This document shows, in pieces, positions 12,218 through 55,078 of a DNA stretch of 64,000 nt (within the stretch, counting starts at the first letter, position 1; each line of letters opens with the position of its first letter). The stretch spans positions 109,177 through 173,176 of the forward strand of contig CAVRHC010000007.1 of assembly GCA_963720835.1 (NCBI GenBank). Direction: 5' to 3'. The notes beneath the pieces are model-generated. The model searched no databases. It was not told where the DNA came from and was given only the letters and a program-made list of their open reading frames with translations. This DNA comes from an uncultured Pseudomonadota bacterium (lineage in GTDB: Bacteria > Pseudomonadota > Alphaproteobacteria > Rhizobiales > Xanthobacteraceae). The position numbers and the translations under genes are program-made.

Positions 12218-12366
12218 AGACCCGATGAATCCTTGTTCAAGCTATTGATTTTTCATAAAAAGTTTTTTCCCCACCTTACAAAAGTTTAATCCCGCCGACA
12301 GGACGCCGTAAGGCTCGTCCCCCCATCTTCAGGTTCGAAGCGCGCGACGCGCAAAACCGAATCCAG

Positions 12367-19376: not shown

Positions 19377-20163
19377 CTATTGTTCGGCCAGCCGGTGCTC
19401 ACTCAAAATAATATTCAACAAGGAACTGTGCACGTGGATTTGGCCGTTGTACTCGATGTATCCGAGTTTTCGAAACTTGGTCATGAACTGATTAATGCGC
19501 GACCGTGTCGTGCCCACCATGTTGGCGAGCATTTCTTGCGTGATCGGTACAGAGATCATGTGCGGTTGCGCATCAAGGCCGGCACTCGCCAGTGTCAGTA
19601 GAATACGTGCCAGGCGTTTTTCGCTGGAGTTGAATAACTGATCGACCAGGTCCGCCTGCAGCTTGTTATTACGATGAAGAACGAAGGATAAGAAAATTGA
19701 AGAAAATTCCGGGTCGATCTTTGAGCGCATTAAGCACTGTAGCCTGCTTGAGTCGGGCGATCTTCGCAGGCGTCGCGCACTTGATCGTTGTTCTCCGCAG
19801 CAGAATTCCGTCCACGCAGCCTTCGCCGAAAAAATCTCCATGCCCAAGAATGGCGATAACGGCCTCCTTGCCCTGCTCGGAGATTGTCGTGACGATAACG
19901 GTGCCGCTGATGATGTAAAAAAGCGCATCCGCGGGATCGCCTTGCGCGTAGATCACCTGATCAATTTCGTAGTCCGCTATTGTTGCGCCGTCGTGTTCGG
20001 CAATGAACACGCGGTAGTCAAAGTCTTGATGTCGACCGCCGTCACCATCTGGTAGGCTCAATTCTTCTTCCATGGTATTCCGCACTTCACGAAAATCGCG
20101 TTCAGCGAACCATTCGGCCGAAGATTGTAAAAGCATTTTTTCGTACTTTTTCGACGACGACAA
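19377..20163 (-). pseudogene. Crp/Fnr-family transcriptional regulator, split by a frameshift near 19719-19727
   Basis: ORF 19669-20163 carries the cNMP-binding beta-roll (IYAQGDPADALFYIISGTV...GHGDFFGEG). ORF 19377-19928 carries, in another frame, the C-terminal Crp HTH (DLVDQLFNSSEKRLARILL...ITQEMLANMVGTTRSRINQFMTKFRKLGYI). It lies in an AT-richer patch. Confidence 0.7.
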
Positions 20164-29831: not shown

Positions 29832-29936
29832 GGCGTCGTTATTCCCCTTGCGTCGCGCGCCGACAATGCGGGGCCGAACCGCGCTGCGCAATGCTGGAAG
29901 GCCGATGATTCAACGCGCGACATTTGGCTTGTGAAT

Positions 29937-29951
29937 GATATATAATATATC
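29937..29951. promoter_or_regulatory. perfect AT palindrome in the leader of the XRE/Ehr operon
   Basis: GATATAT-A-ATATATC (7-bp arms) inside a strongly AT-rich 130-bp gap. TATAAT hexamers lie at 29941-29946 and 29972-29977, and TTGACA at 29963-29968 with non-canonical spacing. Confidence 0.35.
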
Positions 29952-30019
29952 AATAATGATGCTTGACATTTTATAATGGCTGGCAAAAATATCATTTATC
30001 CCGAGTCTTGCCGGCCATC

Positions 30020-30277
30020 ATGATTACCTCCTCCCAGATGCGTGCCGCACGCGCCTTGCTTGGTATCGACCAGCGCGAGCTGGCGCAGCGCGCGCGGCTG
30101 TCGCTGCCGACCATCCAGCGCATGGAGGCGAGCAAGGGTGTCGTCCGCGGCAATGTCGAGTCGCTGATGAAGCTCGTCGACGCGCTTGCCGCCAACGGCG
30201 TTGAATTGATCGGGGAGGGCGCCGCTTCGTCGAGCGGCGGCCGCGGCGTGCGCATGAGAGGTGCGCCCGGATCATGA
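30020..30277 (+). CDS. XRE-family helix-turn-helix transcriptional regulator (85 aa)
   Basis: MITSSQMRAARALLGIDQRELAQRARLSLPTIQRMEAS is a typical Cro/C1-type HTH. Its stop overlaps the next start (ATGA at 30274-30277). Confidence 0.75.
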   Translation: MITSSQMRAARALLGIDQRELAQRARLSLPTIQRMEASKGVVRGNVESLMKLVDALAANGVELIGEGAASSSGGRGVRMRGAPGS

Positions 30278-32280
30278 CGGTGGCGTACGCGCTTTACGGC
30301 GTTGCCGCGTTGTTGGCGCTTGCGCCAATCGCGCTCGTCTTGGCACGCTCGCCCAGTGCCAGCGGCGTTGTCTATGGTGCGAGCCTGGTCGTGTCGTTGG
30401 CGCTTGGCGCGATTTCGCTGGTGAGCCTATTCAACGAACAGACGTCCACCATTGTCCTGCCGCTCGGCCTGCCGTGGCTGGGCGCTCATTTTCGCATCGA
30501 TGCGCTTGCCGCTTTTTTCCTCGTCGTCGTGAATCTCGGCGGCGCGGCGGCGAGCCTGTTTGCGCTCGGCTATGGCCGCCACGAAGAGACGCCGCAACGT
30601 GTGTTGCCCTTCTATCCCGTATATTTGGCGGCGATGAATCTCGTCGTCATGGCCGACGACGCGTTCAGCTTTCTGGTGGCGTGGGAGTTCATGTCGCTCT
30701 CGTCCTGGGCGCTTGTGATCTCGCATCACCAAGATCGCGAGAATGTGCGTGCCGGTTACGTTTATCTCTTGATGGCGAGCTTCGGCACGCTGGCGCTGCT
30801 GCTTGCCTTCGGGCTCCTGGCTGGCGCTGACGGCAACTACGCTTTCACCAGCATGCGCGAGTCTCATCCTTCCGCCGAACTCGCCGCGCTGGTGCTAATC
30901 CTCGCCGTTGTCGGTGCCGGTTCTAAATCCGGCGTGGTGCCGCTGCATGCCTGGCTGCCGCTCGCGCACCCGGCCGCGCCCAGCCATGTCTCCGCGCTGA
31001 TGAGCGGTGTGATGACCAAAGTCGCGGTCTACGGCTTCGTGCGCATCGTGTTTGATCTGCTCGGCACCCCGGACTGGTGGTGGAGCATGGTGGTGCTGGG
31101 CGTCGGCGGTATCACTGCGGTGATGGGCGTGCTGTACGCGCTGATGCAGAATGACATCAAGCGTGTGCTCGCTTACAGCACTATCGAGAACATCGGTATT
31201 ATTTACTCCGCGCTTGGGCTTGCCCTCGCATTCAAGGCCGAAGGCCTTTCGTTGGCTGCGGCGCTTGCGCTGACCGCCGGCCTGTTTCATGTGTTCAATC
31301 ACTCGCTCTTCAAGAGCCTGCTGTTTTTCGGCGCCGGCAACGTGCTCAACGCGACCGGCGAACGCGATATGGAGAAGCTGGGCGGGCTCATCCATCGCAT
31401 GCCGAAAACGAGCTTCGTGTTTCTGGTCGGCTGTGTGGCGATTTCGGCGCTACCGCCGTTCAACGGCTTCGTCTCGGAGTGGTTGACTTTCCAAGCCGTC
31501 TTGCTCAGCCCGCAAATTCCGTCCTGGGGCTTGAAGCTTCTGGTGCCGACGGTTGGTGCGCTTCTCGCTCTGTCGGCGGCGCTTGCGGCGGCGTGTTTCG
31601 TTCGTGCCTTCGGCATCACATTCCTTGGCCGGCCACGCACTGCCGCGGCGGGTAGGGCGCAGGAAAGCGATCGGTTTTCGCTGGCTGCGATGTACATCTT
31701 TGCTGCGCTGTGTCTGCTCGCCGGGATTTTCCCCGGTGTCTTCATCGATGCGCTGGCGCCGGTGTCGACGGCGCTCATTGGTGCGGCAATGCCGCATCAA
31801 ACAAACGTCGCATGGCTCTCGATCGTGCCGATCGCCGAGAGCCGCAGCTCTTATAATGGGCTCCTGGTCTTTCTCTTTGTGGTCGCCTCGGGTTCGATCG
31901 GCGCCTTCGTCATCCACCGCCTGGCCTCCGATCGACTGCGTCGGGGGCCAGCCTGGGATTGCGGCTATCCCGATCCAAGCCCGGCCACGCAATATACAGC
32001 GTCGAGCTTTGCCCAGCCGATCCGCCGCGTTTTCGGCACAGTAATTTTTCGCGTGCGCGAGATCGGCGCGATGCCGCCGCCAGGCTCGAGTGTGTCGGCC
32101 AAACTGACGGTCGAGGTCCATGATCAGATCTGGGAGGTGCTCTACGCGCCGATTTCCAATCTCATTGCTTTAACCGCCGAACGGCTCAACGTGCTCCAGT
32201 TTCTCACCATCCGCAGCTACCTGACCCTGGTGTTTGCTGCGCTCATCGTGTTGCTGCTCGTGTTGGCGATCTGGCCATGA
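30274..32280 (+). CDS. Ehr/hydrogenase-4 subunit B-like antiporter-type membrane subunit (NuoL/HyfB family)
   Basis: 668-aa polytopic protein with Mrp/NuoL-type motifs (WEFMSLSSW, GSKSGVVPLHAWLPLAHPAAPSHVSALMSG). Confidence 0.9.
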   Translation: MTVAYALYGVAALLALAPIALVLARSPSASGVVYGASLVVSLALGAISLVSLFNEQTSTIVLPLGLPWLGAHFRIDALAAFFLVVVNLGGAAASLFALGYGRHEETPQRVLPFYPVYLAAMNLVVMADDAFSFLVAWEFMSLSSWALVISHHQDRENVRAGYVYLLMASFGTLALLLAFGLLAGADGNYAFTSMRESHPSAELAALVLILAVVGAGSKSGVVPLHAWLPLAHPAAPSHVSALMSGVMTKVAVYGFVRIVFDLLGTPDWWWSMVVLGVGGITAVMGVLYALMQNDIKRVLAYSTIENIGIIYSALGLALAFKAEGLSLAAALALTAGLFHVFNHSLFKSLLFFGAGNVLNATGERDMEKLGGLIHRMPKTSFVFLVGCVAISALPPFNGFVSEWLTFQAVLLSPQIPSWGLKLLVPTVGALLALSAALAAACFVRAFGITFLGRPRTAAAGRAQESDRFSLAAMYIFAALCLLAGIFPGVFIDALAPVSTALIGAAMPHQTNVAWLSIVPIAESRSSYNGLLVFLFVVASGSIGAFVIHRLASDRLRRGPAWDCGYPDPSPATQYTASSFAQPIRRVFGTVIFRVREIGAMPPPGSSVSAKLTVEVHDQIWEVLYAPISNLIALTAERLNVLQFLTIRSYLTLVFAALIVLLLVLAIWP

Positions 32281-33227
32281 TCCGTGATTTGGCGTTGCAG
32301 GGAGGTGAGATGACGCTGGTGCTGTTGCTCAGCCCGCTGCTGACTGGATTCGTGCGCAAGGTGAAAGCCCGACTGTTGCGGCGGCAGGGGCCGCCGCTGT
32401 TGCAGCCCTATCGCGACCTCATCCGGTTGATGCGCAAGGATGTCGTGCTGGCCGAGAGCGCTTCGTGGCTGTTTCGCGTCATTCCATACATTATCTTCGG
32501 AGGGACTTGGGTTGCTGCTTCGCTCGTTCCGACCTTCCGTGGCGGTTTGCTGTTTTCCTGGTCGGCCGATCTCATCGCCATCATCGCGTTGCTCGGTAGC
32601 GCACGTTTTTTTCTCGCGCTCGCCGGTCTCGATGTCGGCACCAGCTTCGGCGGCATCGGTTCGAGCCGCGAGGTGATGATCGCCTCGCTCGCCGAGCCCG
32701 CGATGCTGATGATTGTTTTTGCCATCGCCTTGATCGCGGGCTCGACTCAACTTTCGACCATGGCGGCCTTTATGGCGTCGCCGCAGGTCGGCTTGCGCGT
32801 ATCGCTCGGGCTCGGGCTGATCGCGCTGATTATGGTGGCGATCGCGGAGAACGCGCGTATCCCAGTCGACAACCCGGCGACGCATCTTGAACTCACCATG
32901 GTGCACGAAGCTATGGTGCTCGAATATTCGGGCCGGCATCTGGCGTTGATCGAATTGTCCGCCTTTCTCAAACTGCTGCTCTACGTCTCGCTGATCGCAT
33001 GCCTGTTCGCGCCCTGGAGCACGGCGCGGCCTGACGCCGCGCCACAGGAGCTTGTCGTCGGCGTTGCGGCTTATGTCGTCAAACTCGCAGTCGGCGGCTT
33101 TCTGCTCGCTGTGTTCGAAACGTCGATCGCCAAGATGCGGGTTTTCCGCGTGCCGCAATTCCTCGGCGCCGCCTTGATGCTTGGCGTTGCTCGCGACGCT
33201 GCTGCTTTCGTGTCGGGGAGCTTCTAG
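32277..33227 (+). CDS. NuoH/HycD/HyfC-like membrane subunit
   Basis: 316-aa polytopic protein with the N-terminal KARLLRRQGPPLLQPYRDL motif typical of HycD/NuoH. It overlaps the upstream stop. Confidence 0.85.
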   Translation: MIRDLALQGGEMTLVLLLSPLLTGFVRKVKARLLRRQGPPLLQPYRDLIRLMRKDVVLAESASWLFRVIPYIIFGGTWVAASLVPTFRGGLLFSWSADLIAIIALLGSARFFLALAGLDVGTSFGGIGSSREVMIASLAEPAMLMIVFAIALIAGSTQLSTMAAFMASPQVGLRVSLGLGLIALIMVAIAENARIPVDNPATHLELTMVHEAMVLEYSGRHLALIELSAFLKLLLYVSLIACLFAPWSTARPDAAPQELVVGVAAYVVKLAVGGFLLAVFETSIAKMRVFRVPQFLGAALMLGVARDAAAFVSGSF

Positions 33228-33230
33228 CCG

Positions 33231-33893
33231 ATGCACGGACTTGAGTTCGATATTGCTCACCTGCTTGCCGGCTCTCTCGTGCTGGCGTCATTCCTGTTGC
33301 TTTATCAGGACCGACTCTACGCACTGCTAAACGTGTATGCGTTGCACGCCGTAGTACTCGCGGCTTCGGTCACCTGGCAGGCTTTCATACAGGATGCGCC
33401 GCATCTTTATATTACGGCTGCCATCGCACTCGGCTTCAAGGCCATCATCATTCCGGTAGCGCTCCACCGGATCATCGTGCGCCTCGGCATCCACCGCCAG
33501 ATCGAGACTGTGGTCGGCGTCGGTCCGGCGATGTTGCTCGGCATAGGCCTCGTTGCGTTGTCCATGGTGGTGATGCTGCGGGTGACGGTGGACGCCGATC
33601 CGCTCGCGCGTGAGGACCTCGCTTTCGCGCTTTCTGTCGTGCTGCTCGGTTTGCTGATCATGGTGACGCGGCGCAATGCGGTCAGCCAGGTGATCGGCTT
33701 CATGTCGCTCGAGAACGGCCTGGTGCTTGCCGCGACCGGCGCCAAGGGCATGCCGCTGGTGGTTGAAATCAGTGTCGCCTTTTCGGTGCTGATCGCCTTC
33801 ATCGTCATCGGCATCTTCCTGTTCCGAATTCGGGAAAGGTTCGACACCGTCGACCTGCACGCGCTCGATAAATTCCGTGGAGAGCGCCGATGA
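33231..33893 (+). CDS. HyfE-like (NuoK-related) membrane subunit
   Basis: 220 aa with a C-terminal GFMSLENGLVLAA motif characteristic of hydrogenase-4 component E. Confidence 0.8.
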   Translation: MHGLEFDIAHLLAGSLVLASFLLLYQDRLYALLNVYALHAVVLAASVTWQAFIQDAPHLYITAAIALGFKAIIIPVALHRIIVRLGIHRQIETVVGVGPAMLLGIGLVALSMVVMLRVTVDADPLAREDLAFALSVVLLGLLIMVTRRNAVSQVIGFMSLENGLVLAATGAKGMPLVVEISVAFSVLIAFIVIGIFLFRIRERFDTVDLHALDKFRGERR

Positions 33894-35329
33894 CGATCGA
33901 CGCGCTGACCGGCGTCTTGTTGATCCCTGCGGCCGCGGCCGCGCTGCTGGCCGTGCTGCCCGGCTATCGGCTGACCGCGCGGCTTAACGTGCTGGCGACG
34001 CTGGCGACGTTTCTCACAGCGGTGTCTCTGTTCTTCGTCGAGCCAAAGTCCGGCTCCTATTTGCTGGTGGACGATCTCAATAAGGTCTTCATCGTGTTGA
34101 CGACCTTCGTCGGCTTCACCACCAGCGCTTTCAGCGCAAGCTATATCAGCCACGAGATCGAAACGGGCAAGTTGACGCCGACTTTCGTGCGCTTTTATCA
34201 CGCTATGTACCAGGCGTTGATGTTCGCCATGAATCTCGCGCTGGTCGCCAACAATATCGGGCTGATGTGGGTGGCGATCGAGATGGCGACGCTGACCACC
34301 GTGCTGATGGTCGGCATCTACCGGACGCACGAGGCACTGGAAGCGGCCTGGAAATATTTCATCCTCGGCAGCGTCGGCATCGCGCTCGCCTTGTTCGGCA
34401 CCATTCTCGTCTATATGGCGGCACGGCCGGTGATCGGCGAGGGCCTCGACGCCATGGTGTGGACGGTGCTGATCAAGCGTGCCGACAGTTTCGACGCAGC
34501 GCTGCTCAATGTCGCCTTCGTATTTCTGCTGCTCGGCTACGGCACCAAAGTAGGACTGGCGCCGCTGCATGCATGGTTGCCCGACGCCCATGCCGAAGGC
34601 CCGACGCCCATCTCTGCGGTGCTCTCCGGCCTGCTGCTTAACGTCGCGCTCTATGCGCTGCTGCGCTTCAAAATGTTGCTGGCACTCAATCCGGCAGCGA
34701 TTGCGCCGGGCCCGCTGATGGTGACGATGGGGCTCATCTCCTGTGTGTTCGCCGCGTTCATGTTGTACCGCCGGCGCGACATCAAGCGACTGTTCGCCTA
34801 TTCCTCGATCGAACACATGGGCATCATCGTATTCGCCTTTGGCATGGGCGGACCGCTCGCCAATTTTGCCGGCCTCCTGCACATGACCATGCACTCGCTC
34901 ACCAAATCGGCGATCTTCTTTGCGGTCGGTCACATCTCTCAAGTCAAAGGCACGCAGAAGATTGCCGACATGGGCGGCCTGACGGTAAGCAATCCGGTGC
35001 TTGGTTGGGGCCTAGTACTGGGCGTGGTGGCGATTGCCGGCCTGCCGCCGCTCGGAATTTTCATGAGCGAATTTCTTGTGGTGAGCTCGACCTTTGCGCG
35101 TCAGCCTTGGCTCGCAATCATTCTGGTGTTCGGAATCTTGATTGCGCTCGGCGGCTTGTTCTATCGCCTCAACACCGTGGCCTTCGGCGAGCCACGCGGA
35201 TCGACGGCGCCGACGCATGCTTCCTACGTGCCGATGTTCGCCCATCTCGCGATCGTTTTTGTCGCGGGCTTTTATATGCCGCCGGCGTTGGTTCTCGGCT
35301 TCGAGAACGTCGCCAAGTTGCTAGGATAA
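33890..35329 (+). CDS. NuoN/HyfF-like antiporter-type membrane subunit
   Basis: 479 aa with GTKVGLAPLHAWLPDAHAEGPTPISAVLSG. ATGA overlap with the upstream gene. Confidence 0.9.
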   Translation: MTIDALTGVLLIPAAAAALLAVLPGYRLTARLNVLATLATFLTAVSLFFVEPKSGSYLLVDDLNKVFIVLTTFVGFTTSAFSASYISHEIETGKLTPTFVRFYHAMYQALMFAMNLALVANNIGLMWVAIEMATLTTVLMVGIYRTHEALEAAWKYFILGSVGIALALFGTILVYMAARPVIGEGLDAMVWTVLIKRADSFDAALLNVAFVFLLLGYGTKVGLAPLHAWLPDAHAEGPTPISAVLSGLLLNVALYALLRFKMLLALNPAAIAPGPLMVTMGLISCVFAAFMLYRRRDIKRLFAYSSIEHMGIIVFAFGMGGPLANFAGLLHMTMHSLTKSAIFFAVGHISQVKGTQKIADMGGLTVSNPVLGWGLVLGVVAIAGLPPLGIFMSEFLVVSSTFARQPWLAIILVFGILIALGGLFYRLNTVAFGEPRGSTAPTHASYVPMFAHLAIVFVAGFYMPPALVLGFENVAKLLG

Positions 35330-35334
35330 CGCCC

Positions 35335-36843
35335 ATGGCTTTGTTCAACGACATAAAGCATCGCGAGTATGCCAAGGCGCATCGGCCTTGGCCGCGGCTC
35401 ATTGTCGGCGACGAGGGTTGGAAGCAGGCGATCGATCTGTTGACGAGCGGGCGCTGCACGCTGCTCGGGCTTTGGGGTGATGCGCCCGATGTGCACATGG
35501 CACTGCTTGATGAAACCGCAGGCGACATTGCGGTGATCAGTTACGCTTGCGTCAACGGAAATTTTCCGAGCGTTGCCGCGCACCATCCGCCCGCGATCCG
35601 GCTTGAGCGCGCAATCCGCGATCTGTTCGGCCTCGAAGCGCTGGGCGCGCCCGATGCGCGGACCTGGCTCGACCTCGGCTTCTGGGATGTGCGGCATCCG
35701 CTCGGCAAGAAAAAGCGCGCGCAAAAACCGGCGCCTTACGAATTCTTGCCGGTGGAAGGCGAGGGGCTGCACCAGATTCCGGTCGGCCCCGTGCATGCCG
35801 GCATCATCGAGCCGGGGCATTTCCGTTTCACCGCCAATGGCGAATTCGTGGTGCGGCTGGAGCAGAGGCTCGGCTACGTGCACAAGGGCATCGAGTCCCT
35901 GATGGCCGGATCGACGTTGAGCGAAGCGGCCAAGCTCGCGGGCCGTACCTCCGGCGACAGCACCGTCGCTTACTCATATGCCTTTGCGCAGGCGGCCGAA
36001 GCGGCCTTGCAGGTGGACGTGCCGCCGCGCGCGGTCTACCTGCGCGCGTTGATGGCGGAGCTCGAGCGGCTCGCCAACCATTTCGGCGATATCGGCGCGA
36101 TCTGCAACGATGCTTCCTTTGCGCTGATGCATGCGCAAACAGGTATCCTGCGCGAACGCGTCCTGCGCGCGGCGCAGTTGTGTTTCGGCCACCGGCTAAT
36201 GATGGATGTGATCGTGCCAGGCGGCCTCGCGCGCGATCTTGCGCCGGACGGTGAAAAGGCATTGCGCGATTTGCTGTTCGAGGTACGCAAGGTTTTCCCG
36301 CGGCTGATCGAGCTTTACGACAAAACGGCATCTCTACAGGACCGCACGGTCACCACAGGCATCGCAAAACCGGACTATGTGCGCCAGTTCGGCGCCGGCG
36401 GCTATGTCGGCCGTGCCTCCGGCCGCGCATTCGATGCGCGTCGAAACCTCAACTATGCGCCGTACAACGATCTCAAATTCGAGGTGCCGGTACTGGACGC
36501 CGGCGACGTCAATGCCCGCGTCTGGATCCGCATCCGCGAGGTGGAGCAGAGCCTTGGGCTGATCGAGCAGATCCTCAGCCGCCTGCCGGACGGCAAGACT
36601 GACACGCCGATTAAAGCGAGCGGGCGAATCAGTGAAGGAGCGGCGCTGGTGGAAGCCTTCCGTGGTGACGTCTTGGTTTGGCTGCGGCTCGACGGCAAGG
36701 GGCGCGTGGCGCGCTGCCACTTGCGCGATGCGTCCTGGTTTCAATGGCCGCTCTTGGAGACCGCAATCGAAGACAACATCGTCGCGGATTTTCCGCTCTG
36801 CAACAAGTCGTTCAATTGTTCGTATTCGGGGCACGACCTCTGA
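35335..36843 (+). CDS. NuoC-NuoD fusion / HycE-like large subunit lacking the NiFe cysteine ligands
   Basis: VGPVHAGIIEPGHFRF and RLGYVHKGIE are typical of group-4 hydrogenase large subunits. Where RxCGxCxxxH is expected the sequence reads RTSGDSTVAY, and where DPCxxCxxR is expected it reads NCSYSGHDL followed by the stop. Confidence 0.9.
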   Translation: MALFNDIKHREYAKAHRPWPRLIVGDEGWKQAIDLLTSGRCTLLGLWGDAPDVHMALLDETAGDIAVISYACVNGNFPSVAAHHPPAIRLERAIRDLFGLEALGAPDARTWLDLGFWDVRHPLGKKKRAQKPAPYEFLPVEGEGLHQIPVGPVHAGIIEPGHFRFTANGEFVVRLEQRLGYVHKGIESLMAGSTLSEAAKLAGRTSGDSTVAYSYAFAQAAEAALQVDVPPRAVYLRALMAELERLANHFGDIGAICNDASFALMHAQTGILRERVLRAAQLCFGHRLMMDVIVPGGLARDLAPDGEKALRDLLFEVRKVFPRLIELYDKTASLQDRTVTTGIAKPDYVRQFGAGGYVGRASGRAFDARRNLNYAPYNDLKFEVPVLDAGDVNARVWIRIREVEQSLGLIEQILSRLPDGKTDTPIKASGRISEGAALVEAFRGDVLVWLRLDGKGRVARCHLRDASWFQWPLLETAIEDNIVADFPLCNKSFNCSYSGHDL

Positions 36844-37352
36844 TGCGCCGAATCCTGTTGCAAAGCCTCACGCGCGGTCCGCTCACGGAAGCCGCACCTG
36901 CGCCGGACGAGGCGGCGCTGGCGGAACTCGCCAAGAGCGTCGACCGCGTCGCGCGCGCCAGACTCGGCCGCTCGCTCTCCATTCGCCAGGTTGATGCCGG
37001 CTCCTGCAACGGCTGCGAACTGGAAATCCACGCACTCAGCAATGCCTTCTATGACCTCGAACGCTTTGGTTTTCATTTCGTCGCATCGCCGCGCCATGCC
37101 GACGTCCTGATGGTGACCGGTCCTGTGACCAAGAACATGCGCGAGGCGCTCGAGCGCACTTACAACGCGACGCCCGATCCGAAATGGGTGGTGGCCGTCG
37201 GTGGTTGCGCCGCCGACGGTGGCGCGTTTGCCGGCAGCTATGCGGTGGTCGGTGGCGTGAAAGACGTCATTCCAGTCGATTTGCACATTCGCGGCTGTCC
37301 ACCAACGCCGACCGATCTTCTCAGAGGGCTGCTCGCGCTGCTGACCGTTTGA
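36843..37352 (+). CDS. NuoB/HycG-like small subunit with intact 4-Cys [4Fe-4S] motif
   Basis: GSCNGCE, GGCA and GCPP cysteine motifs. The ATG overlaps the large-subunit stop by 1 nt. Confidence 0.9.
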   Translation: MRRILLQSLTRGPLTEAAPAPDEAALAELAKSVDRVARARLGRSLSIRQVDAGSCNGCELEIHALSNAFYDLERFGFHFVASPRHADVLMVTGPVTKNMREALERTYNATPDPKWVVAVGGCAADGGAFAGSYAVVGGVKDVIPVDLHIRGCPPTPTDLLRGLLALLTV

Positions 37353-37499: not shown

Positions 37500-37527
37500 T
37501 TGACAATATTTGAGTCGCAGCTAGAAT
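37500..37527 (+). promoter_or_regulatory. sigma-70-like promoter upstream of the flavin reductase gene
   Basis: TTGACA (37500-37505), a 16-nt spacer, then TAGAAT (37522-37527). It is followed by the inverted repeat ATCATT-gaa-AATGAT (37526-37540). Confidence 0.4.
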
Positions 37528-37582: not shown

Positions 37583-38092
37583 ATGAGCGCTATGGAAGCT
37601 CTTAGCGATGCTGTCGGCGCCGATTTCCGCGCCACGATGCGCCGGTTCCCCGCCACCGTGACCATCGTGACCGCCAATGACGGGACACGCGATCACGGCA
37701 TGACCGTATCGTCCGTCACGTCGGTATCAATGTCGCCGCCTTCTCTGATGGTCTGTCTGAACAATCGGACGCTGCTGCACGAAATGCTGCTGAGTCAGGC
37801 GAATTTCGCCGTCAACGTGCTCAGCCACGAGCATATGAGCTTGTCGGACGCCTTCAGCGGCCGCGTTGATCCGGAGGTTCGCTTCGCCGCAGGTGGTTGG
37901 GAGCGCGACGAGTTGGGCATGATGGTGCTGCCCTCGGCGCATGCCGTTGTGGTGTGTCGGCGGATGGCCGCTGTGCCCTATGGCACCCACACTATTTTCG
38001 TCGGCCAAGTCACGCGGGCGCGTGTCGATGACCGCACGCGACCGCTGCTATATGCCGAGGCCGCGTATTGCATTTCTCATCCTGCCACTTGA
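37583..38092 (+). CDS. flavin reductase (HpaC/HsaB-type NAD(P)H:flavin oxidoreductase component)
   Basis: 169 aa with FRATMRRFPATVTIVT...GMTVSSVTSVSMSPPSLMVCLN, typical of the flavin_reduct domain. Confidence 0.85.
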   Translation: MSAMEALSDAVGADFRATMRRFPATVTIVTANDGTRDHGMTVSSVTSVSMSPPSLMVCLNNRTLLHEMLLSQANFAVNVLSHEHMSLSDAFSGRVDPEVRFAAGGWERDELGMMVLPSAHAVVVCRRMAAVPYGTHTIFVGQVTRARVDDRTRPLLYAEAAYCISHPAT

Positions 38093-38141
38093 CGGACCGC
38101 GCTGTTAAGCGGCTGTCGCGCCGTTAGGGCCTTTGCCGAAG

Positions 38142-38173
38142 AAAAAATGGCCGGGGGGAGGAACCCGGCCATT
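38142..38173 (-). terminator. rho-independent terminator of the monooxygenase gene
   Basis: On the minus strand, AATGGCCGGG ... CCCGGCCATT forms a 10-bp stem followed by TTTTTT, 10 nt after the stop at 38183. Confidence 0.6.
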
Positions 38174-38182
38174 GTCCGCAAT

Positions 38183-39412
38183 TCAGAATATGCCTTGCGG
38201 TTGCAGTCCTAATTTGTGCGTTCCGTAGAGCGCCGACAGGGTATCCCAATCGATGCTTGCATGGAGTGCTGCGGTGTTGGCGTCGCGCCAGAAACGCTGC
38301 ACGCGATTCTTCTCGTCCGCAGCCGCCGCGCCAACCTTGGTGAAGAGATCGTTGACGACTTCCGACGAGGTCCGCGCGGCAAAGCCATGATTACGCCGGA
38401 TCCGCACACGCTGTTCGATATCGAGTGTACCGCCGTTGCAGACAATGTCCTGGCCTTCCTTAAGGCTGGTCACCATCAGGGTTTGCGCGGCATCGATCCG
38501 CGCGGAGGCCTGACCGATCAGGCTTTGAATGAGCTGCGATTCGGCGACCTTTTCGAAAACGCCGGGACGGGCCATGCGCTTTGCATCGCGAGCGGTTTCC
38601 GTAAAGGCGTCGATCGCCCCTTGCGCCATTCCAACGATGGGCGAAACCAGTGCGGTCGGCCCGAACGTCGGGTAGCCCATACGCGCTTGGCGGTTGCCCG
38701 GAACGTCAAGGCCCGGGACCTTGCCGGAAAAGATAGCGCTCAATGGCAACACGCGATGTTTCGGAACGAAGACCGGATCGACGATGCCAACCGTCTTCGA
38801 ACCGGTGCCCTGAAGTCCGCAAACGTTCCAGCTGTTGTGATCGACAACAACGTCGCTCACCGGTACCAGGCACCAGGCAAGCGCTGGCGGGCCTTCTTTA
38901 TTTGGGTTGGGCAATAGCGCGGCAAGGATCAGCCACGCGGCACTATCGACACCGCTTGCCCACGGCCAGTTGCCGGAGATCTTGTAACCGCCGTCGACCG
39001 CCTCGACCTTGGGTGTCGGCAAATATGAGACGGCGAGAAGGTTGTCCGGATCGTCCCAGACCTCCTGCTGCGCTTCGAGCGGAAAGAAGGCGGTCATCCA
39101 GCCAAAGCAGACTGCGAGGGTCCCGCACCAGCCGGTGCTGCCGCAGGCGCGGCCGAGCTCGAAGCCGATCTGCGCCAGTTCCGCGGGACCGTATTCATAG
39201 CCGCCGAAGCGTTCGGGCTGCATCACACGAAACACGTCCGCATCGCGCAAAGCGTCCATGGTCTCGGCGGGGACGCGTTTGGCTTTTTCGGTAGCGAGGG
39301 CGCGAGCATCGATTTCGGGGCGCAGTTTGCGGATGCGATCAAGGATCATGCTGAATTCCGGCCGCTGCGCCGCGCTAGCGGCGCCAACCGGGCGCAAAGC
39401 TTCCTTCTGCAT
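38183..39412 (-). CDS. acyl-CoA dehydrogenase-fold flavin-dependent monooxygenase, oxygenase component (HsaA/C2-HpaH-like)
   Basis: 409 aa with ACAD-type N, middle and C domains (RVMQPERFGGYEY ... ISGNWPWASG ... RFWRDANTAALH). It is convergent with the flavin reductase gene. Confidence 0.75.
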   Translation of the reverse strand: MQKEALRPVGAASAAQRPEFSMILDRIRKLRPEIDARALATEKAKRVPAETMDALRDADVFRVMQPERFGGYEYGPAELAQIGFELGRACGSTGWCGTLAVCFGWMTAFFPLEAQQEVWDDPDNLLAVSYLPTPKVEAVDGGYKISGNWPWASGVDSAAWLILAALLPNPNKEGPPALAWCLVPVSDVVVDHNSWNVCGLQGTGSKTVGIVDPVFVPKHRVLPLSAIFSGKVPGLDVPGNRQARMGYPTFGPTALVSPIVGMAQGAIDAFTETARDAKRMARPGVFEKVAESQLIQSLIGQASARIDAAQTLMVTSLKEGQDIVCNGGTLDIEQRVRIRRNHGFAARTSSEVVNDLFTKVGAAAADEKNRVQRFWRDANTAALHASIDWDTLSALYGTHKLGLQPQGIF

Positions 39413-47474: not shown

Positions 47475-48365
47475 TTAAAAATTTGGCAATGGCAGCCCGG
47501 CCTGCATAGACCCAGCGCGCAGTGTATTAAGTAGCAAACAGGCAATTGTCATCGGGCCTACACCGCCCGGCACCGGCGTGATGGCACCGGCGACTTGCAA
47601 TGCGTCCGCATATGCCACGTCACCGACGATGCGCGGCTTGCCGCCTTCGCCCGGCACGCGGTTAATACCGACATCAATTACCGTCGCTCCGCGCTTGATC
47701 CAGTCGCCGCGCACCATCTCAGGTTTGCCGATAGCAGCGACCAGCAAGTCGGCGCGCCGGCACACTGCCGGCAGATCGTGCGTTTTGGAATGGCAAATGG
47801 TCACCGTCGCGTTCTCGGCTAGCAGCAACTGCGCGACCGGCTTGCCGACGATGTTGGAGCGGCCGATCACCACCGCCTCCATGCCCGCGAGCGACTCATG
47901 AACGGTCTTCGCCAACAGCACGCACCCCAGCGGCGTACACGGCACCAACGCGGGCAATCCGCTGGCGAGACGACCGACGTTGAGCGGATGAAAGCCGTCC
48001 ACGTCCTTGGCGGGATCAATGGCGGCGATCACCTTCTGTGGATCGATCTGCTTGGGAAGCGGCAACTGCACCAGAATGCCACTTACGGAGGTGTCGGCAT
48101 TGAGCGCGCGGATGAGTTCGAGTAATTCGCCTTCGCTGGTGTTCGCCGGCCGCTTGTGGTCGAACGCTCGCATGCCGGCTTCCGCCACCGCCTTTGATTT
48201 AGTGCGCACGTAAACGCTGCTCGCCGGATCCTCGCCGACAAGCACCACGGCGATACCCGGCGTAAGTCCGTTAGCGCTTTTAAGTCGGGCGACCTCGCCG
48301 GCAATTTTTTTGCGCAGCTCCGCTGCGACTGCTTTACCGTCGATGGTAACGGAGGTGATGGTCAT
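47475..48365 (-). CDS. folD: bifunctional methylenetetrahydrofolate dehydrogenase/methenyltetrahydrofolate cyclohydrolase
   Basis: 296 aa: [50 protein letters not shown]. Confidence 0.95.
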
Positions 48366-49165
48366 GTTTTAGTGAGCGCCGGCTAATTGACGATGCAATA
48401 GACACGCGCCTTTTCCATCTTCCACGTGCAGGAGTCGCGGTCGTAGGGTGTAAGTGCGAAGCAGTGTCAATGATTGTGCAACTATCACGACCAAAATAGC
48501 GGTGACTGTCACGTAAGCTTGCACGATTGCTGGCGGCACGGTTGCCGAAAGCTCAGCGAACGGATTTGTGATGAACATGAGAGTCCCCCAATTTCGGGCC
48601 AGTTCTTAATCGTTGTCGAAATAAAAACCGGGACCGAATGGAAGCGACAAATAGCACAAGTAAAAATCTTTAAGCCATTGACTTGAATCTATCGCGCAAT
48701 AGACGGTGCAAAACAAACGACGTCATCGCAAAAAGCGAGTGCCGCCGACAGTGGCGCTTGCCGCATAGGCTCAAACTGAACAGCCCGATTCGGCCGCGTC
48801 TCGAGTCATCACCACCATCGTGGGCGAATTGCTCGAGATTCCCAACAAAGTTGTCGCCTTTCGGGGGGTATATGGCAGCCATCCCGCAACTCGCAGCCTT
48901 CGCAAATAAAGCGTGACAGATTTCGTTGCGTCGCGATGGCAGTCGCAAACTGTGACATCAACTTACGGAGCATGCTCATGTCAGCCTCTCGTTCGTCAGT
49001 TCCATCGAAATATAAATAATTTCAATCCAAGAACATTGTTGGGCTATTGAGGTAAATCAAAATATGCAGACCAGGCAGCAGAGGATTTGCTATAGCGAAA
49101 AAGATCGTTTTGTTCTATTTTCTTCAATAAGTACTGGGCTTTAGGCGCCTCGCCAGAGAACGACC

Positions 49166-49790
49166 ATGGATATCTTCAAGCCGGTGAAAATCGAAGGCGC
49201 GCGCGTCATGCTTGAGCCGTTGTCGCTGCGGCATCTTGATGATCTCGCGGCTGCCGGCGCCGACGGATCCATCTGGCATTGGCTGCCGAGCGCGCACCAT
49301 TTGCCGGGCTCAATGGCCGAATTCATTGAGTCTGCTTTGGCCGCATATGAGCGGCGCTCCGCCCTGCCTTTCGCGACGATCGATCGCGTGTCGAAAAAAG
49401 CTGTTGGCTCGAACTCGCTTCCACCATATCGAAATCGAACATCGACGCCTTGAAATCGGGGTGACCTGGATTGGAACTGCTTTCCAACGGTCATATGTCA
49501 ACACTGAAACTAAGTTCCTGCAGCTTTGGTACTGTTTTGAAATCCTGAATTGTCGACGGGTCGAGTTCAAAGCGGATGTCGACAACAAAAAATCAATCAA
49601 CGCGATATCGCGGCTCGGCGCCACGAAAGAGGGGCTTTTTCGAAAGCATATGCTGTATGCGGACGGTCGAAACCGCGATAATGTTTATTTTTCAATAATT
49701 GACGACGAGTGGCCCGCTATCCAGGCGCAGCTTCAGGCGAAGCTTAGCTACGCAGTCTCCCCTCGCGTCATCGAAGTGAAGGCGGCATGA
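49166..49790 (+). pseudogene. GNAT (RimJ/RimL-like) N-acetyltransferase with a 1-nt frameshift at about 49412
   Basis: ORF 49166-49453 gives the N-terminal part (...ATIDRVSKKAVGS). The +1 frame continues with TRFHHIEIEHRRLEIGVTWIGTAFQRSYVNTE...RVEFKADVDNKKSINAISRLGATKEGLFRKH from 49413. Confidence 0.7.
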
Positions 49791-49803
49791 GCGCCCACGC
49801 GCC

Positions 49804-50694
49804 TCAATCCTTGCTGACACGTTTTGCGTAAGCGTCAATAAAATCAGCGGCAGCTTTGCTTCCTCGAGCAAAAGATTTCATCGCTTCCTCATGGAGCAAA
49901 TTCAACGCTTGCATTTTTATTGCATTCGCTTCGTCGCTCTCGGTGATGTTCTCAGCGTTGCGCGGGCGAGGTAAATTGACTTCAATGACAGAACGAACAC
50001 GCGTTGGAATATTTGACATGATCAAGATGCGATCGGCCAAAAAAATTGCTTCGTCGATGTCTGTCGTGACGAAAAACGTCGTGCGCCTGAATTCGTTATA
50101 GAGGTTTGCGTAGTATTCCTGCATCAGCCGTTTGGTCATGGCATCCAGACCGCGGAACGGCTCGTCCAGGATCATAATCGCCGGTTTGTTAATCATGGAG
50201 CGAGCAAGTTCAGCGCGACGTTGCATGCCTCCGGAAAGCTGCGACGGATACTTTTTACGGAATGCTGCGAGCCCCACCTTCTGCAGCAACGCTTCGGCGA
50301 AATCGCGCATCTCCGGCGTGTCTTCGCCGCGTGCACGCGGCCCGTACATGATGTTGTCGTAAGTGGTCATCCAGGGGAAAAGTGCGGTCTCCTGGAAACA
50401 GACCAAACGATCGACCCCCGGACCTGTTACCGGCTTGTCGTCGAAAATAACCGTCCCGCTATTGGGACGTTCGAAACCCGCCAAAAGCCGTATCAGCGTG
50501 CTTTTGCCGCATCCGGACGGTCCGATCATAACGGTCAATTTGCTGCGTTCGATCGTAAAGCTGCAGTTCTGCACGACATGCTTAGTAAAAACGTCGGTGC
50601 CGTAAGACTTGCTGACGTTCTTGACAACGATTTCGCTGCCGAAGGCGGTAGACGTGCCGGCTTGAGCTGACAAGTTGTGGGTCATTTCCTGCAT
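49804..50694 (-). CDS. ABC transporter ATP-binding protein (NitT/TauT family), second ATPase of the operon
   Basis: Walker A GPSGCGKST, signature LSGGMQRR, Walker B ILDEPF. Confidence 0.9.
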   Translation of the reverse strand: MQEMTHNLSAQAGTSTAFGSEIVVKNVSKSYGTDVFTKHVVQNCSFTIERSKLTVMIGPSGCGKSTLIRLLAGFERPNSGTVIFDDKPVTGPGVDRLVCFQETALFPWMTTYDNIMYGPRARGEDTPEMRDFAEALLQKVGLAAFRKKYPSQLSGGMQRRAELARSMINKPAIMILDEPFRGLDAMTKRLMQEYYANLYNEFRRTTFFVTTDIDEAIFLADRILIMSNIPTRVRSVIEVNLPRPRNAENITESDEANAIKMQALNLLHEEAMKSFARGSKAAADFIDAYAKRVSKD

Positions 50695-50711
50695 ATTTTT
50701 TTCTCGCGTTT

Positions 50712-51560: not shown

Positions 51561-51562
51561 GA

Positions 51563-53379: not shown

Positions 53380-53423
53380 GCCTTTTTAAGGCATGGAGCC
53401 GCGTTGACGTCGTCGTGCGTACG

Positions 53424-54611: not shown

Positions 54612-55078
54612 TTTGAATCCTCCCTAGCGTGTTTGGTTTTTATACGAAACTCATCGTCTGATTTTCGTGGAACGTCACGTTTCCTTTCTGGATTGCCCCT
54701 TGGTGTCAATTTGCAGTCTATCGCGGCTGCGAGCTGGTCCACCTATTAGCTTAGCGATTTTCGCCGCGTTGCTTTCCGACAGAATGACAGCACCAATTCT
54801 TAATGAGAAAATTGTTCCTCCTAATAGCCCAATAGAAGACCACTATTACCCGCTGGCTTTGGACCGGTGCGAACGCCGTTCTGGTCAGTTGAACGAAAAA
54901 TAGGCAGGTTTTAAGCGCACTTCCGGGCCCAATGCGGGTCGCTTTGAGCTATTGCTCAATCTATTGATATATAACTATTTTCGATATTCTGTGATCTGGT
55001 GAATTCAGGCTGGGCGCTGATATCATCAGTACAACCATACGAGTCTAATCACACTCGACTTTCGGAGGGACAATCATC

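Follow-up and report, generated by a model that had tools for sequence, protein, structure and literature searches.

The window, as we call the whole 64-kb stretch of DNA analysed here, carries seven co-oriented genes on the forward strand at 30020-37352 (Table 1). A gene for an XRE-type helix-turn-helix protein is followed at 30274-37352 by six structural genes in the order HyfB-, HyfC/NuoH-, HyfE-, HyfF-, NuoC+NuoD/HycE- and NuoB/HycG-like. All six structural genes start with ATG and each junction of the operon is an overlap or a gap of at most 5 nt, with ATGA overlaps at 30274-30277, 32277-32280 and 33890-33893 and a 1-nt overlap at 36843. Gene order, co-orientation and overlapping or near-abutting junctions, which the original prediction had described, agree with the open reading frame coordinates and with the Pfam and NCBIfam matches. 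Its count of six genes holds for the structural genes, but 30020-30277 is a separate seventh gene (HTH_3/XRE-type) that had been left unnamed. The assignment to an ehrABCDLS-type locus was likewise upheld by the membrane arm, the Cys-less large subunit and the lack of hyp, fdh and endopeptidase genes nearby. A Pfam scan of about 67 open reading frames in the 64 kb gave no Hyp protein, HycI endopeptidase or molybdopterin formate dehydrogenase, in line with the predicted absence of formate dehydrogenase, hyp and maturation endopeptidase genes. Neither ferredoxin subunits of the HyfA/HyfH (HycB/HycF) type nor hyp and hycI maturation genes were found in the operon, in the window or adjoining the operon in relatives.

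Table 1. Genes, control elements and key codons of the locus (positions in the window)
Feature	Position	Strand	Description
Putative control region	29936-29990	+	palindrome, half-site, promoter-like elements
Perfect palindrome TGATATATAATATATCA	29936-29952	+	sequence read
TGATG half-site	29957-29961	+	adjoins -35-like TTGACA
-35-like TTGACA	29963-29968	+	promoter-like match
-10-like AAAAAT	ends 29990	+	promoter-like match
hyqR-like	30020-30277	+	85 aa, XRE-type helix-turn-helix; Pfam HTH_3
hyqB / ehrA	30274-32280	+	668 aa, HyfB/NuoL-like antiporter-type membrane subunit
hyqC / ehrB	32277-33227	+	316 aa, HyfC/HycD/NuoH-like membrane subunit
hyqE / ehrC	33231-33893	+	220 aa, HyfE-like membrane subunit
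hyqF / ehrD	33890-35329	+	479 aa, HyfF/NuoM/N-like antiporter-type membrane subunit
hyqG / ehrL	35335-36843	+	502 aa, fused NuoC + NuoD/HycE-like large subunit, without NiFe ligands
HyqG S206 codon	35950-35952	+	
HyqG D208 codon	35956-35958	+	
HyqG S209 codon	35959-35961	+	
HyqG C257 codon	36103-36105	+	
HyqG C489 codon	36799-36801	+	
HyqG C495 codon	36817-36819	+	
HyqG S496 codon	36820-36822	+	
HyqG G499 codon	36829-36831	+	
hyqI / ehrS	36843-37352	+	169 aa, NuoB/HycG-like small subunit
HyqI C55 codon	37005-37007	+	
HyqI C58 codon	37014-37016	+	
HyqI C122 codon	37206-37208	+	
HyqI C152 codon	37296-37298	+	

Judged by their sequences, the six structural proteins make up a minimal complex-I/hydrogenase-4-like machine, whose membrane arm would consist of the antiporter-type subunits HyqB and HyqF together with HyqE and the NuoH-like HyqC. 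HyqB was matched by the NCBIfam model for hydrogenase 4 subunit B (893 bits, cut-off 667) and also by Pfam Proton_antipo_M, and HyqF by the model for hydrogenase 4 subunit F (866 bits, cut-off 533). Both keep the conserved Glu and Lys residues according to alignment and orthologue conservation. The charged residues of HyqB are invariant in WEFMS, GSKSG..PLHAWLP, MTKVA, NHSLFKSLLF and GFVSEW among 63 orthologues, and from knowledge of these motifs we take them to lie at channel positions. When HyqF was aligned to E. coli NuoM, a Lys was found at K234, a Glu at E407 and an Asn at K265, the latter being invariant in 76 orthologues. HyqC matched Pfam NADHdh (E = 8.1e-39) and its stretch AEN.R.P.DNPaTHLELTMVHEAMvLEYSgRHLA is at least 90% conserved nearly throughout and mostly invariant in 68 orthologues. 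HyqE, the best-conserved subunit among the relatives (mean identity 84.7%), gave no match in the Pfam scan and hit the NCBIfam hydrogenase 4 membrane subunit with E = 9.5e-25 and 87.7 bits, which is under the cut-off of 136.

The large subunit HyqG combines the Pfam domains Complex1_30kDa and Complex1_49kDa, and its AlphaFold2 model (pLDDT 95.5) has HycE as top structural match (TM 0.93). In the alignment with E. coli HycE (7z0s_E, E = 2.7e-57) RTSGDS stands opposite RVCGIC and NCSYSG opposite DPCYSC, with S206, S209, S496 and G499 aligned to C241, C244, C531 and C534. Residue by residue, HyqG contains neither of the group 4 [NiFe]-hydrogenase motifs L1 (RxCGxCxxxH) and L2 (DPCxxCxx[RH]). The loss was also seen in a MAFFT alignment with true hydrogenases carrying RxCGxC and ELCYSCxDR. 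On this alignment evidence HyqG is a HycE-fold protein in whose pocket Ser/Asp/Ser and Ser/Gly substitute for the four NiFe cysteines, and the ligand loss predicted at 35944-35973 and 36814-36840 is confirmed, including its codons. Moreover, HyqG ends three residues past the last ligand position and therefore has no C-terminal peptide for a maturation endopeptidase. Across 82 sequences, SGDS and ADFPlCNKSFNCSYsG.Dl show no or almost no variation, and Cys 257, 489 and 495 are invariant. Besides, the EPGHFR motif typical of hydrogenases is retained in the beta1-beta2 loop, with at least 90% conservation. Of the quinone ligands of complex I, the Tyr of R-L-D-Y is replaced by Gly207 and the His of the beta1-beta2 loop by Ile (alignment with 8ba0_D). 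The small subunit HyqI belongs to Pfam Oxidored_q6 (E = 3.4e-34), and C55, C58, C122 and C152 all lie opposite Cys in HycG (7z0s_G, E = 3.4e-36). Three of them are invariant in 78 sequences and C122 is at least 90% conserved; the four are predicted to serve a single N2-type [4Fe-4S] cluster.

Relatives of the operon were found at no fewer than 595 places in a one-genome-per-species collection, and the six structural genes were colinear in 67 of 67 relatives. Those with 65-72% identity belong to Bradyrhizobium, Rhodopseudomonas, Rhizobium (including R. johnstonii 3841 pRL11) and Beijerinckiaceae; Bradyrhizobium, Rhodopseudomonas and Rhizobium species and Beijerinckia are also named as hyq carriers in papers on Azorhizobium caulinodans. 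No conserved neighbour gene of any kind was seen beside the operon in 82 relatives. Further relatives occur in genera such as Sphingopyxis, Pseudolabrys and Methyloceanibacter, none of which is known to be diazotrophic, so the complex may serve another purpose here than recycling the H2 of nitrogenase. In a rough neighbour-joining tree of 84 large subunits (74 Cys-less, 10 with four Cys, no bootstrap) the HyqG of the window falls into a clade with the signature SSSG/CCC nested among Cys-less sequences, and the 10 representatives that have the four Cys group together in a clade apart. In this tree the large subunit lies outside the true-hydrogenase clade, and alignment did not restore its ligands. 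The CCC signature (257, 489, 495) was present in only 12 of the 84 aligned sequences, all within the window's own clade. Most of the wider Cys-less family lacks these three Cys, so that they cannot form a universal catalytic centre. Most of the 74 Cys-less representatives share R-x-SGD[ST] and the C-terminal NKSF-N-x-SY[SA]G-x-DL.

The same gene set has been studied genetically in A. caulinodans ORS571, where hyqRBCEFGI (AZC_4361-4355; GenBank FJ378904) was analysed between 2009 and 2012 by deletion mutants, reporter fusions and H2 measurements (PMC2650096, PMC2930871, PMC3357923). The claim that this family is known only from comparative genomics therefore has to be dropped. Orthologues named in these papers include those of Bradyrhizobium japonicum USDA110 (blr6338-6344), Rhodopseudomonas palustris BisB5, Xanthobacter autotrophicus Py2, Beijerinckia indica and Rhodocista centenaria. 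By published layout, sizes and Cys positions, the A. caulinodans operon and that of the window share seven genes in the order regulator/hyfB/hyfC/hyfE/hyfF/hyfG/hyfI-like with overlapping junctions, no homologues of hyfA, hyfD or hyfH, and no hyp dependence or linkage. HyqG is in both a NuoC::NuoD fusion without either CxxC (502 aa in the window, 504 aa in A. caulinodans). Its conserved Cys are found at 257, 489 and 495 in the window and at 258, 491 and 497, published as completely conserved, in A. caulinodans, the second and third lying 13 and 7 residues from the C-terminus in both. For HyqI, Cys 55, 58, 122 and 152 of the window compare with 55, 58, 112 and 152 as printed, Cys-112 possibly being a misprint in the paper. 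The start of A. caulinodans hyqR, ATGATCACC (M-I-T; from the published primer Hyq-B), also matches the M-I-T of the window gene.

The product of the hyqR-like gene matched Pfam HTH_3 with 24.8 bits (cut-off 23). In 59 of 65 relatives a co-oriented helix-turn-helix gene immediately precedes the structural genes; its mean identity of 73.6% is on a level with the structural subunits, and it is annotated as 'helix-turn-helix transcriptional regulator' on pRL11 of R. johnstonii 3841. Upstream of hyqR the promoter-like TTGACA-16-AAAAAT scores 10/12. TGATG-N7-CATCA palindromes with at most one mismatch were detected in 19 of 60 relatives' upstream regions versus 0.33 expected from shuffles, and in these 60 regions they mostly overlap TTGACA or TTGAAA. 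From the conservation of this motif we infer a putative operator over the -35 region, at which HyqR probably autoregulates the operon. In A. caulinodans the operon is part of the nif regulon and is preceded by a NifA box and a sigma-54 promoter; the window and 59 relatives show neither and have a sigma-70-like -35 element inside the palindrome instead. The host of the window's operon appears to be an uncultured Pseudolabrys-like member of the Hyphomicrobiales. A NifA box together with a sigma-54 promoter occurred in none of these 60 upstream regions of 200 nt, and single elements were at chance level (sigma-54-like, 5 versus 3.9 expected; TGT-N10-ACA, 2 versus 2.6 expected). From these upstream regions, the operon in the window's lineage is probably outside NifA control. 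NifA/sigma-54 control characterises the operon of A. caulinodans and does not serve as a structural criterion of Hyq membership.

In A. caulinodans, nodule H2 evolution for the hup hyq double mutant was reported as 27 versus 0.3 umol per g per h, and each single mutant recycles H2. Recycling continues when the 20-gene hup/hyp region is deleted, and this Hyp-independence fits the absence of NiFe ligands and hyp genes in the window. About 80% of microaerobic H2 evolution is hyq-dependent and persists in a nifK mutant; loss of hyq slows diazotrophic growth. The hyq deletion also takes out the regulator hyqR. A NiFe site in Hyq was called 'uncertain, if not unlikely' by the A. caulinodans authors, and all functional evidence on Hyq was obtained in vivo, by one laboratory and in one organism. 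The original prediction regarded substrate, partner and ion of the family as uncharacterised. This is corrected for the substrate, as the A. caulinodans genetics link Hyq to H2, but the redox partner and the pumped ion, like the catalytic site, are not established biochemically because no such complex has been purified.

We see about an even chance for the combined reading that the window carries an orthologue of the hyqRBCEFGI operon of Alphaproteobacteria and that its complex works as an H2:quinone oxidoreductase. The quinone pool of the membrane would exchange electrons with a low-potential couple in the HyqG pocket on the cytoplasmic side, and ion translocation would be coupled reversibly to electron transfer via the HyqI cluster. 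Following the A. caulinodans genetics, the couple would be H2/2H+; H2 would be taken up when O2 is available and, with a highly reduced quinone pool, evolved at a cost in proton-motive force, and the activity would be independent of the Hyp maturation system. The Glu and Lys residues kept in HyqB and HyqF speak for an ability to pump, and the conserved HyqI Cys for redox activity. The absence of all four canonical NiFe ligands argues against an H2:quinone oxidoreductase, as do the complex-I quinone ligands not kept in HyqG. A single FeS cluster and a single pocket also make it difficult to accommodate an H2 site as well as one for quinone. Moreover, the missing NifA/sigma-54 signature in 60 upstream regions argues against an A. 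caulinodans-like H2 role here. A speculative and rather unlikely extension holds that Hyq complexes are genuine H2 converters with a non-Cys4, Hyp-independent centre, in which Cys257, Cys489, Cys495 and the Ser-Gly-Asp-Ser pocket might take part, and that aerobic soil Alphaproteobacteria commonly carry them, under their own HTH control, whether or not they fix nitrogen. If so, hydrogenase surveys requiring NiFe cysteines would miss a widespread soil route of H2 uptake or release. The Hyq/Ehr family and the mutant link to H2 recycling in Azorhizobium were already known; new are the occurrence at 595 or more places, the unconserved flanks, the lack of the NifA/sigma-54 signature in 60 regions and the TGATG-N7-CATCA palindrome.

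As an alternative of low probability, the complex may have no dealings with H2 and act as a ferredoxin (or flavodoxin):quinone oxidoreductase, binding quinone via non-canonical residues in a cavity of HyqG, HyqI and HyqC. The complex-I-like set, which has one N2-type cluster and lacks HyfA/HyfH/HycB/HycF homologues, the absent NiFe ligands and the intact antiporter-type subunits are consistent with it. Without a NuoI/HycF-type subunit the HyqI cluster would be exposed, and a soluble low-potential carrier would give electrons to it or take them from it without an intermediary. In the reverse direction the proton-motive force would drive electron transfer from quinol to ferredoxin. Such a donor feeding nitrogenase would explain why A. 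caulinodans hyq belongs to the nif regulon and why its loss slows diazotrophic growth, and the published H2 phenotypes would be indirect effects of low-potential electron supply. However, hupSL mutants and the 20-gene hup/hyp deletion still recycle all their H2, an ability that is lost when hyq is deleted too; recycling without another hydrogenase makes an indirect explanation hard. The hyq-dependent H2 evolution in the nifK mutant, the lack of the quinone-binding Tyr and His of NuoD and the conserved EPGHFR motif of hydrogenase type also speak against it.

A formate link has been proposed for Ehr of Geobacter, of Mycobacterium tuberculosis (Rv0081-0087) and of Riflemargulisbacteria. Ehr subunits of Geobacter sulfurreducens peak in abundance on formate, FDH-Ehr complexes were hypothesised for candidate phyla, and HyqG has its top match, in sequence as in structure, in HycE of formate hydrogenlyase. 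Nevertheless, we consider it very unlikely that the complex is the membrane module of a formate-linked system to which a formate dehydrogenase encoded elsewhere docks, yielding formate:quinone or formate hydrogenlyase-like chemistry: there is no fdh gene in the 64 kb and no conserved neighbour in the 82 relatives, the connecting HycB/HycF-type ferredoxin subunits are absent, and the HyqG of the window sits in its own SSSG/CCC clade. A redox-independent or purely regulatory Mrp-like cation/proton antiporter, with the peripheral module as a structural relic, would agree with two Mrp/Nuo antiporter-type subunits carrying conserved charged residues and with a large subunit lacking recognisable catalytic metal ligands. 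We judge it very improbable, as the HyqI [4Fe-4S] cysteines are invariant or at least 90% conserved (78 sequences) and the Pfam and NCBIfam matches of the seven genes include no other Mrp subunit (B, C, E, F, G). In the HyqG pocket, SGDS and NKSFNCSY likewise show little or no variation (82 sequences), which argues against a relic.

Compared with known systems, the window complex shares with respiratory complex I (NuoA-N) homologues of NuoB, NuoC, NuoD, NuoH and NuoL/M/N, the N2-type cluster and antiporter-type subunits with conserved Glu and Lys. It differs in that its operon lacks the N-module (NuoEFG), NuoI and separate NuoA, NuoJ and NuoK and in that Gly207 and Ile of HyqG replace the quinone-ligand Tyr and His of NuoD; on these grounds it was rejected as a complex I. 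The best sequence and structural match was E. coli hydrogenase-4 (hyfABCDEFGHIJR)/formate hydrogenlyase-1 (HycBCDEFG; PDB 7Z0S), with the HyfB and HyfF NCBIfam models passed and the EPGHFR loop kept. However, the four NiFe Cys and the C-terminal maturation peptide are missing, HyfA/HyfH (HycB/HycF) and HyfD are absent from the operon, and the window holds no fdhF, hyp or hycI gene. A group 4 [NiFe]-hydrogenase (Hyf/FHL) was therefore rejected as well, as Cys ligands, ferredoxin subunits and, in the window, hyp and hycI are absent. With Ehr, whose subunit names were confirmed in the Geobacter paper, the complex shares the ehrABCDLS order of NuoL-like, NuoH-like, HyfE-like, NuoN/M-like, large and small subunits, a large subunit without NiFe cysteines and a small subunit in which the proximal cluster is retained. 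In Geobacter the structural genes number seven (GSU0739-45), against six in the window, M. tuberculosis has Rv0081 whereas the window has its own XRE-type regulator gene, and the window's clade has three extra conserved Cys (CCC at 257, 489 and 495). The Hyq 'endo-hydrogenase' is an alphaproteobacterial subgroup of the Ehr family.

The cluster consists of seven same-strand ORFs at 30020-37352 (+ strand), for which we use the hyqRBCEFGI names, Hyq being the alphaproteobacterial subgroup of the Ehr family (complexes related to energy-converting hydrogenases). Three junctions are ATGA overlaps (30274-30277, 32277-32280 and 33890-33893), a further one is a 1-base overlap at 36843 and the remaining two intergenic gaps measure 3 and 5 nt. 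The original prediction had listed exactly these overlaps, and every one was found again in the ORF coordinates. However, it had counted six genes, leaving the HTH_3/XRE-type gene at 30020-30277 undescribed. Its reading of the cluster as Ehr-type was right, and we consider membership of the Hyq/Ehr family highly probable. The HyfE-like ORF gave no Pfam match.

Features of the hyq-like operon and of its surroundings in the window
Feature	Position	Strand	Product and start	Match or content
Upstream region as a whole	29936-29990
Palindrome TGATATATAATATATCA	29936-29952
TGATG adjoining TTGACA	29957-29968
hyqR-like	30020-30277	+	85 aa, ATG	HTH_3/XRE-type (Pfam); separate gene
hyqB-like	30274-32280	+	668 aa, ATG	Hydrogenase 4 subunit B (NCBIfam), 893 bits, cut-off 667
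hyqC-like	32277-33227	+	316 aa, ATG	NuoH/NADHdh
hyqE-like	33231-33893	+	220 aa, ATG	Hydrogenase 4 membrane subunit HyfE, 87.7 bits, below the cut-off of 136
hyqF-like	33890-35329	+	479 aa, ATG	Hydrogenase 4 subunit F, 866 bits, cut-off 533
hyqG-like	35335-36843	+	502 aa, ATG	Complex1_30kDa + Complex1_49kDa fusion
hyqI-like	36843-37352	+	169 aa, ATG	NuoB/Oxidored_q6
Upstream neighbours		other strand		GFO/IDH/MocA oxidoreductase, CDF cation-efflux protein, amidohydrolase, M1 peptidase, PAS histidine kinase
Promoter-like site of the flavin reductase	37500-37527			TTGACA-16-TAGAAT
Flavin reductase	37583-38092	+		downstream neighbour
Further downstream neighbours				acyl-CoA-dehydrogenase-type gene (other strand), TetR regulator
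Two-component monooxygenase-like pair	37583-39412			flavin reductase and opposite-strand acyl-CoA-dehydrogenase-type gene
Cytochrome c maturation genes	8086-11756			CcmH/I-like TPR protein, CcmE, CcmF; followed by DegP-type protease, two-component system, GlnE
Crp/Fnr-type regulator, apparently split	19377-20163	-		cNMP_binding 19669-20163, HTH_Crp_2 19377-19928, overlapping frames
Low-G+C stretch	~48000-64000			ABC transporter with NMT1-like binding protein, Rieske ring-hydroxylating oxygenase + reductase, LysR regulator, TauE, GcvT-like protein, PanB, formate-tetrahydrofolate ligase (incomplete at window end)

In the PDB sequence search the large subunit HyqG matched E. coli HycE best (7z0s_E, E = 2.7e-57); MbhL came second, with NuoD/49-kDa subunits below it. 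In the alignment with HycE, RTSGDS faces RVCGIC and NCSYSG faces DPCYSC. Therefore, S206, S209, S496 and G499 stand in place of the four NiFe ligands, which we take to be C241, C244, C531 and C534 in native HycE numbering, the PDB chain numbering being offset by 12. The protein ends only 3 residues past the last ligand position and has no C-terminal peptide for a maturation endopeptidase. The quinone-ligand Tyr of complex I (R-L-D-Y) lies opposite Gly207 and the loop His opposite Ile, and the hydrogenase-type EPGHFR loop is retained. AlphaFold2, run on an alignment of 84 sequences, gave a confident model (pLDDT 95.5, pTM 0.95), for which HycE was again the closest structural match (TM 0.93, rmsd 2.8 A) and E. 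coli NuoCD ranked lower. Among 82 orthologues Cys257 is invariant, and the motifs SGDS and ADFPlCNKSFNCSYsG.Dl show no or almost no variation. In a wider set of 50%-identity cluster representatives from a 1.8-billion-protein library (84 sequences, aligned by MAFFT with faster settings) the Cys quartet was missing in 74 of the 84. Most of these 74 share R-x-SGD[ST] and the C-terminus NKSF-N-x-SY[SA]G-x-DL, and Asp208 is present in 67/84. The ten representatives with RxCGxC and ELCYSCxDR formed one separate clade in a rough neighbour-joining tree, in which the clade of the window HyqG is characterised by SSSG in place of the ligands, together with cysteines 257, 489 and 495. The proposed loss of the NiFe ligands thus survives the comparison, as the alignment restores none of them and HyqG falls outside the true hydrogenase clade.

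In the alignment of the small subunit HyqI with HycG (E = 3.4e-36) each of the four cluster cysteines (C55, C58, C122 and C152) faces a Cys; among 78 sequences three of them are invariant and C122 is at least 90% conserved. In the membrane arm, HyqB retains the conserved charged residues that a NuoM-like antiporter subunit should have; located in the motifs WEF, GSK..PLHAWLP, MTKVA, FKSLLF and GFVSEW, these are invariant in 63 orthologues. For HyqF the PDB search gave no match at E <= 1e-40, and the alignment was taken at 1e-15. Compared with E. coli NuoM, HyqF has kept the Lys opposite K234 and the Glu opposite E407. Opposite K265, the central TM8 lysine, it has an Asn (motif LSGLLLNVALY) that is invariant in 76 orthologues, whereas HyqB has Lys at the matching position. 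The acidic loop of the NuoH-like subunit is retained.

By exact look-up in the contig collection no identical copy of the window HyqG was found, and close homologues were used for comparison. HyqG has thousands of close homologues in soil and groundwater metagenomes; each of the best 120 reaches an identity of at least 79%, and some carry the label Pseudolabrys. A one-genome-per-species scan yielded at least 595 related places. The carriers among the matches listed comprise MAGs labelled Pseudolabrys, Hyphomicrobiales or Xanthobacteraceae, several Bradyrhizobium species, Rhodopseudomonas, Methyloceanibacter, Rhizobium, Neorhizobium, Ciceribacter and Sphingopyxis. We compared the neighbourhoods of 82 fetched loci carrying relatives of the operon (designated by L numbers). 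The six structural genes were colinear in all 67 loci that hold all six, and the HTH gene lay directly upstream on the same strand in 59/65. Mean identity among relatives was as high for the HTH protein (73.6%) as for the large subunit (70.5%). In the 82 loci no flanking gene of the window was conserved beside the operon, and the genes around L001, L002 and the Rhizobium johnstonii 3841 pRL11 locus are different in each case. With its colinearity, conserved HTH gene and unconserved flanks, the unit is a self-contained seven-gene cassette.

Some loci depart from this layout. In L049 and L059 the HTH gene is found downstream of the operon on the opposite strand (match ~12135-12377, - strand), and no HTH homologue was found upstream of the operon in L015, L045, L062 and L067. 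L045 also has much more divergent HyqE (43% identity) and HyqF (37%) with otherwise normal subunits, which suggests a mosaic operon. L083 places the operon in a well-studied strain, R. johnstonii 3841 (plasmid pRL11, record 320214-327673), where the large subunit has the RefSeq name 'NADH-quinone oxidoreductase subunit C'. Elsewhere in the records the same protein is called 'hydrogenase expression protein HypE' or 'nickel-dependent hydrogenase large subunit'. The family is not annotated consistently in public records.

We compared the 200 nt upstream of hyqR in the window and 59 relatives. The hyq operon of Azorhizobium caulinodans depends on NifA; upstream of its hyqR lie a NifA box and a sigma-54 site. 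In contrast, the two elements occurred together in 0/60 of the regions compared here, each singly being at chance level. A palindrome, TGATG-N7-CATCA with at most 1 mismatch, was present in 19/60 regions versus 0.33 expected from shuffles, usually wrapping a -35-like TTGACA or TTGAAA upstream of the HTH gene. Besides the window it occurs in L002, L007, L008, L012, L018, L020, L021, L036, L044, L052 and others; a second group (L001, L003, L010, L013, L017, L025, L060) instead has CATCAATAG...CTAT..TGATG. We rejected an FNR/FixK box, as the half-sites are TGAT-N9-ATCA and not TTGAT-N4-ATCAA. Judged from the sequences, the palindrome is probably the operator of the HTH protein, and HyqR probably autoregulates the operon at this putative site. 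In the window's lineage the operon probably lies outside any nif regulon.

The neighbours of the operon are unrelated to it. A Pfam scan of about 67 ORFs across the 64 kb detected no Hyp protein, HycI-type endopeptidase or molybdopterin formate dehydrogenase, which bears out their absence as originally predicted. The flavin reductase was rejected as electron partner, since it has its own promoter-like site and lies beside the operon in 0/82 relatives; it probably pairs with the opposite-strand acyl-CoA-dehydrogenase-type gene, with which it resembles a two-component flavin-dependent monooxygenase. Nor were the GFO/IDH/MocA oxidoreductase and the CDF transporter accepted as partners, since neither is conserved beside the operon in relatives. 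Farther away, the cytochrome c maturation genes are ordinary alphaproteobacterial chromosomal context. The overlapping frames of the split Crp/Fnr-type regulator suggest a frameshift, either a pseudogene or a sequencing error. From about 48000 the G+C content falls from ~0.62 to 0.53-0.55 and stays low almost to the window end (0.58 in the last 2 kb); this stretch may be a horizontally acquired block.

In the literature the Ehr class is described as hydrogenase-related and Cys-less, its function being regarded as unknown, and a paper on complex I evolution pointed to 'hyq' in alphaproteobacterial diazotrophs. For the Hyq subgroup, the initial view that knowledge ends with comparative genomics is wrong, since mutant studies of the seven-gene hyqRBCEFGI operon of A. 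caulinodans have been published in three papers from one laboratory (PMC2650096, PMC2930871, PMC3357923). Single hup or hyq mutants still recycled nitrogenase H2 in nodules, and nodules of the hup hyq double mutant showed an H2 evolution of 27 vs 0.3 umol per g per h. Recycling also persisted after deletion of the entire 20-gene hup/hyp region. Similarly, H2 is recycled in Rhodocista, where hyq is present and hup/hyp absent. Below 1 uM O2 about 80% of the very high H2 output of A. caulinodans was hyq-dependent, and this output persisted in a nifK mutant. The authors inferred a reversible H2:quinone oxidoreductase coupled to proton-motive force and called a NiFe site in HyqG 'uncertain, if not unlikely'. 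This functional support was obtained in vivo by one laboratory in one organism; the enzyme has never been purified, and the hyq deletion also takes out hyqR.

We propose that the complex would act as a reversible, ion-translocating oxidoreductase, in which one N2-type cluster would connect the quinone pool with a couple of low potential at the HyqG pocket. According to the published A. caulinodans genetics this couple would be H2/2H+. We give this explanation as a whole, H2 function included, an even chance. The main alternative, a ferredoxin or flavodoxin:quinone oxidoreductase, seems rather unlikely to us. With one FeS cluster and one pocket, it is hard to explain where H2 and quinone would each find a site. 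The question posed is whether a Hyp-independent hydrogenase-4/complex-I relative can turn over H2 without the NiFe cysteines and, if not, which role a six-subunit 'core complex I' that has just one FeS cluster would play.

The papers name as carriers Bradyrhizobium japonicum (blr6338-6344), Rhodopseudomonas palustris, Rhizobium leguminosarum bv. viciae, Beijerinckia, Xanthobacter, Azospirillum and Rhodocista. The Bradyrhizobium, Rhodopseudomonas and Rhizobium loci recovered here have 65-72% identity and the same layout as the window. The operon's distribution extends far beyond the eight diazotrophic genera first listed, and its restriction to diazotrophic microaerophiles, as claimed in the papers, is at odds with the range of carriers recovered here. 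Most relatives appear from their upstream regions to have no nif-type promoter at all. Together with the wide spread and the unconserved flanks, this makes the published recycling of nitrogenase H2 unlikely as the general function of the operon. Cultured carriers (Bradyrhizobium, Rhodopseudomonas, R. johnstonii 3841 pRL11 and Azorhizobium) open the question to experiment. The biochemical puzzle is real and long recognised, and cultured model organisms are better suited to solving it than the window.

The window brings no new kind of system; the cluster is a further Hyq/Ehr member in what seems to be an uncultured Pseudolabrys-like bacterium. Orthology to A. caulinodans Hyq rests on matches to the published description and to a primer. 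HyqG is a NuoC::NuoD fusion in both organisms (504 aa in A. caulinodans, 502 aa in the window) that lacks both CxxC motifs and has conserved cysteines at 258, 491 and 497 in A. caulinodans and at 257, 489 and 495 in the window. The HyqI cysteines are published as 55, 58, 112 and 152 and are found here at 55, 58, 122 and 152. Homologues of hyfA and hyfD are absent from the A. caulinodans operon as well as from the window. Moreover, the A. caulinodans hyqR start, M-I-T as read from the published primer Hyq-B, is identical to that of the window gene.
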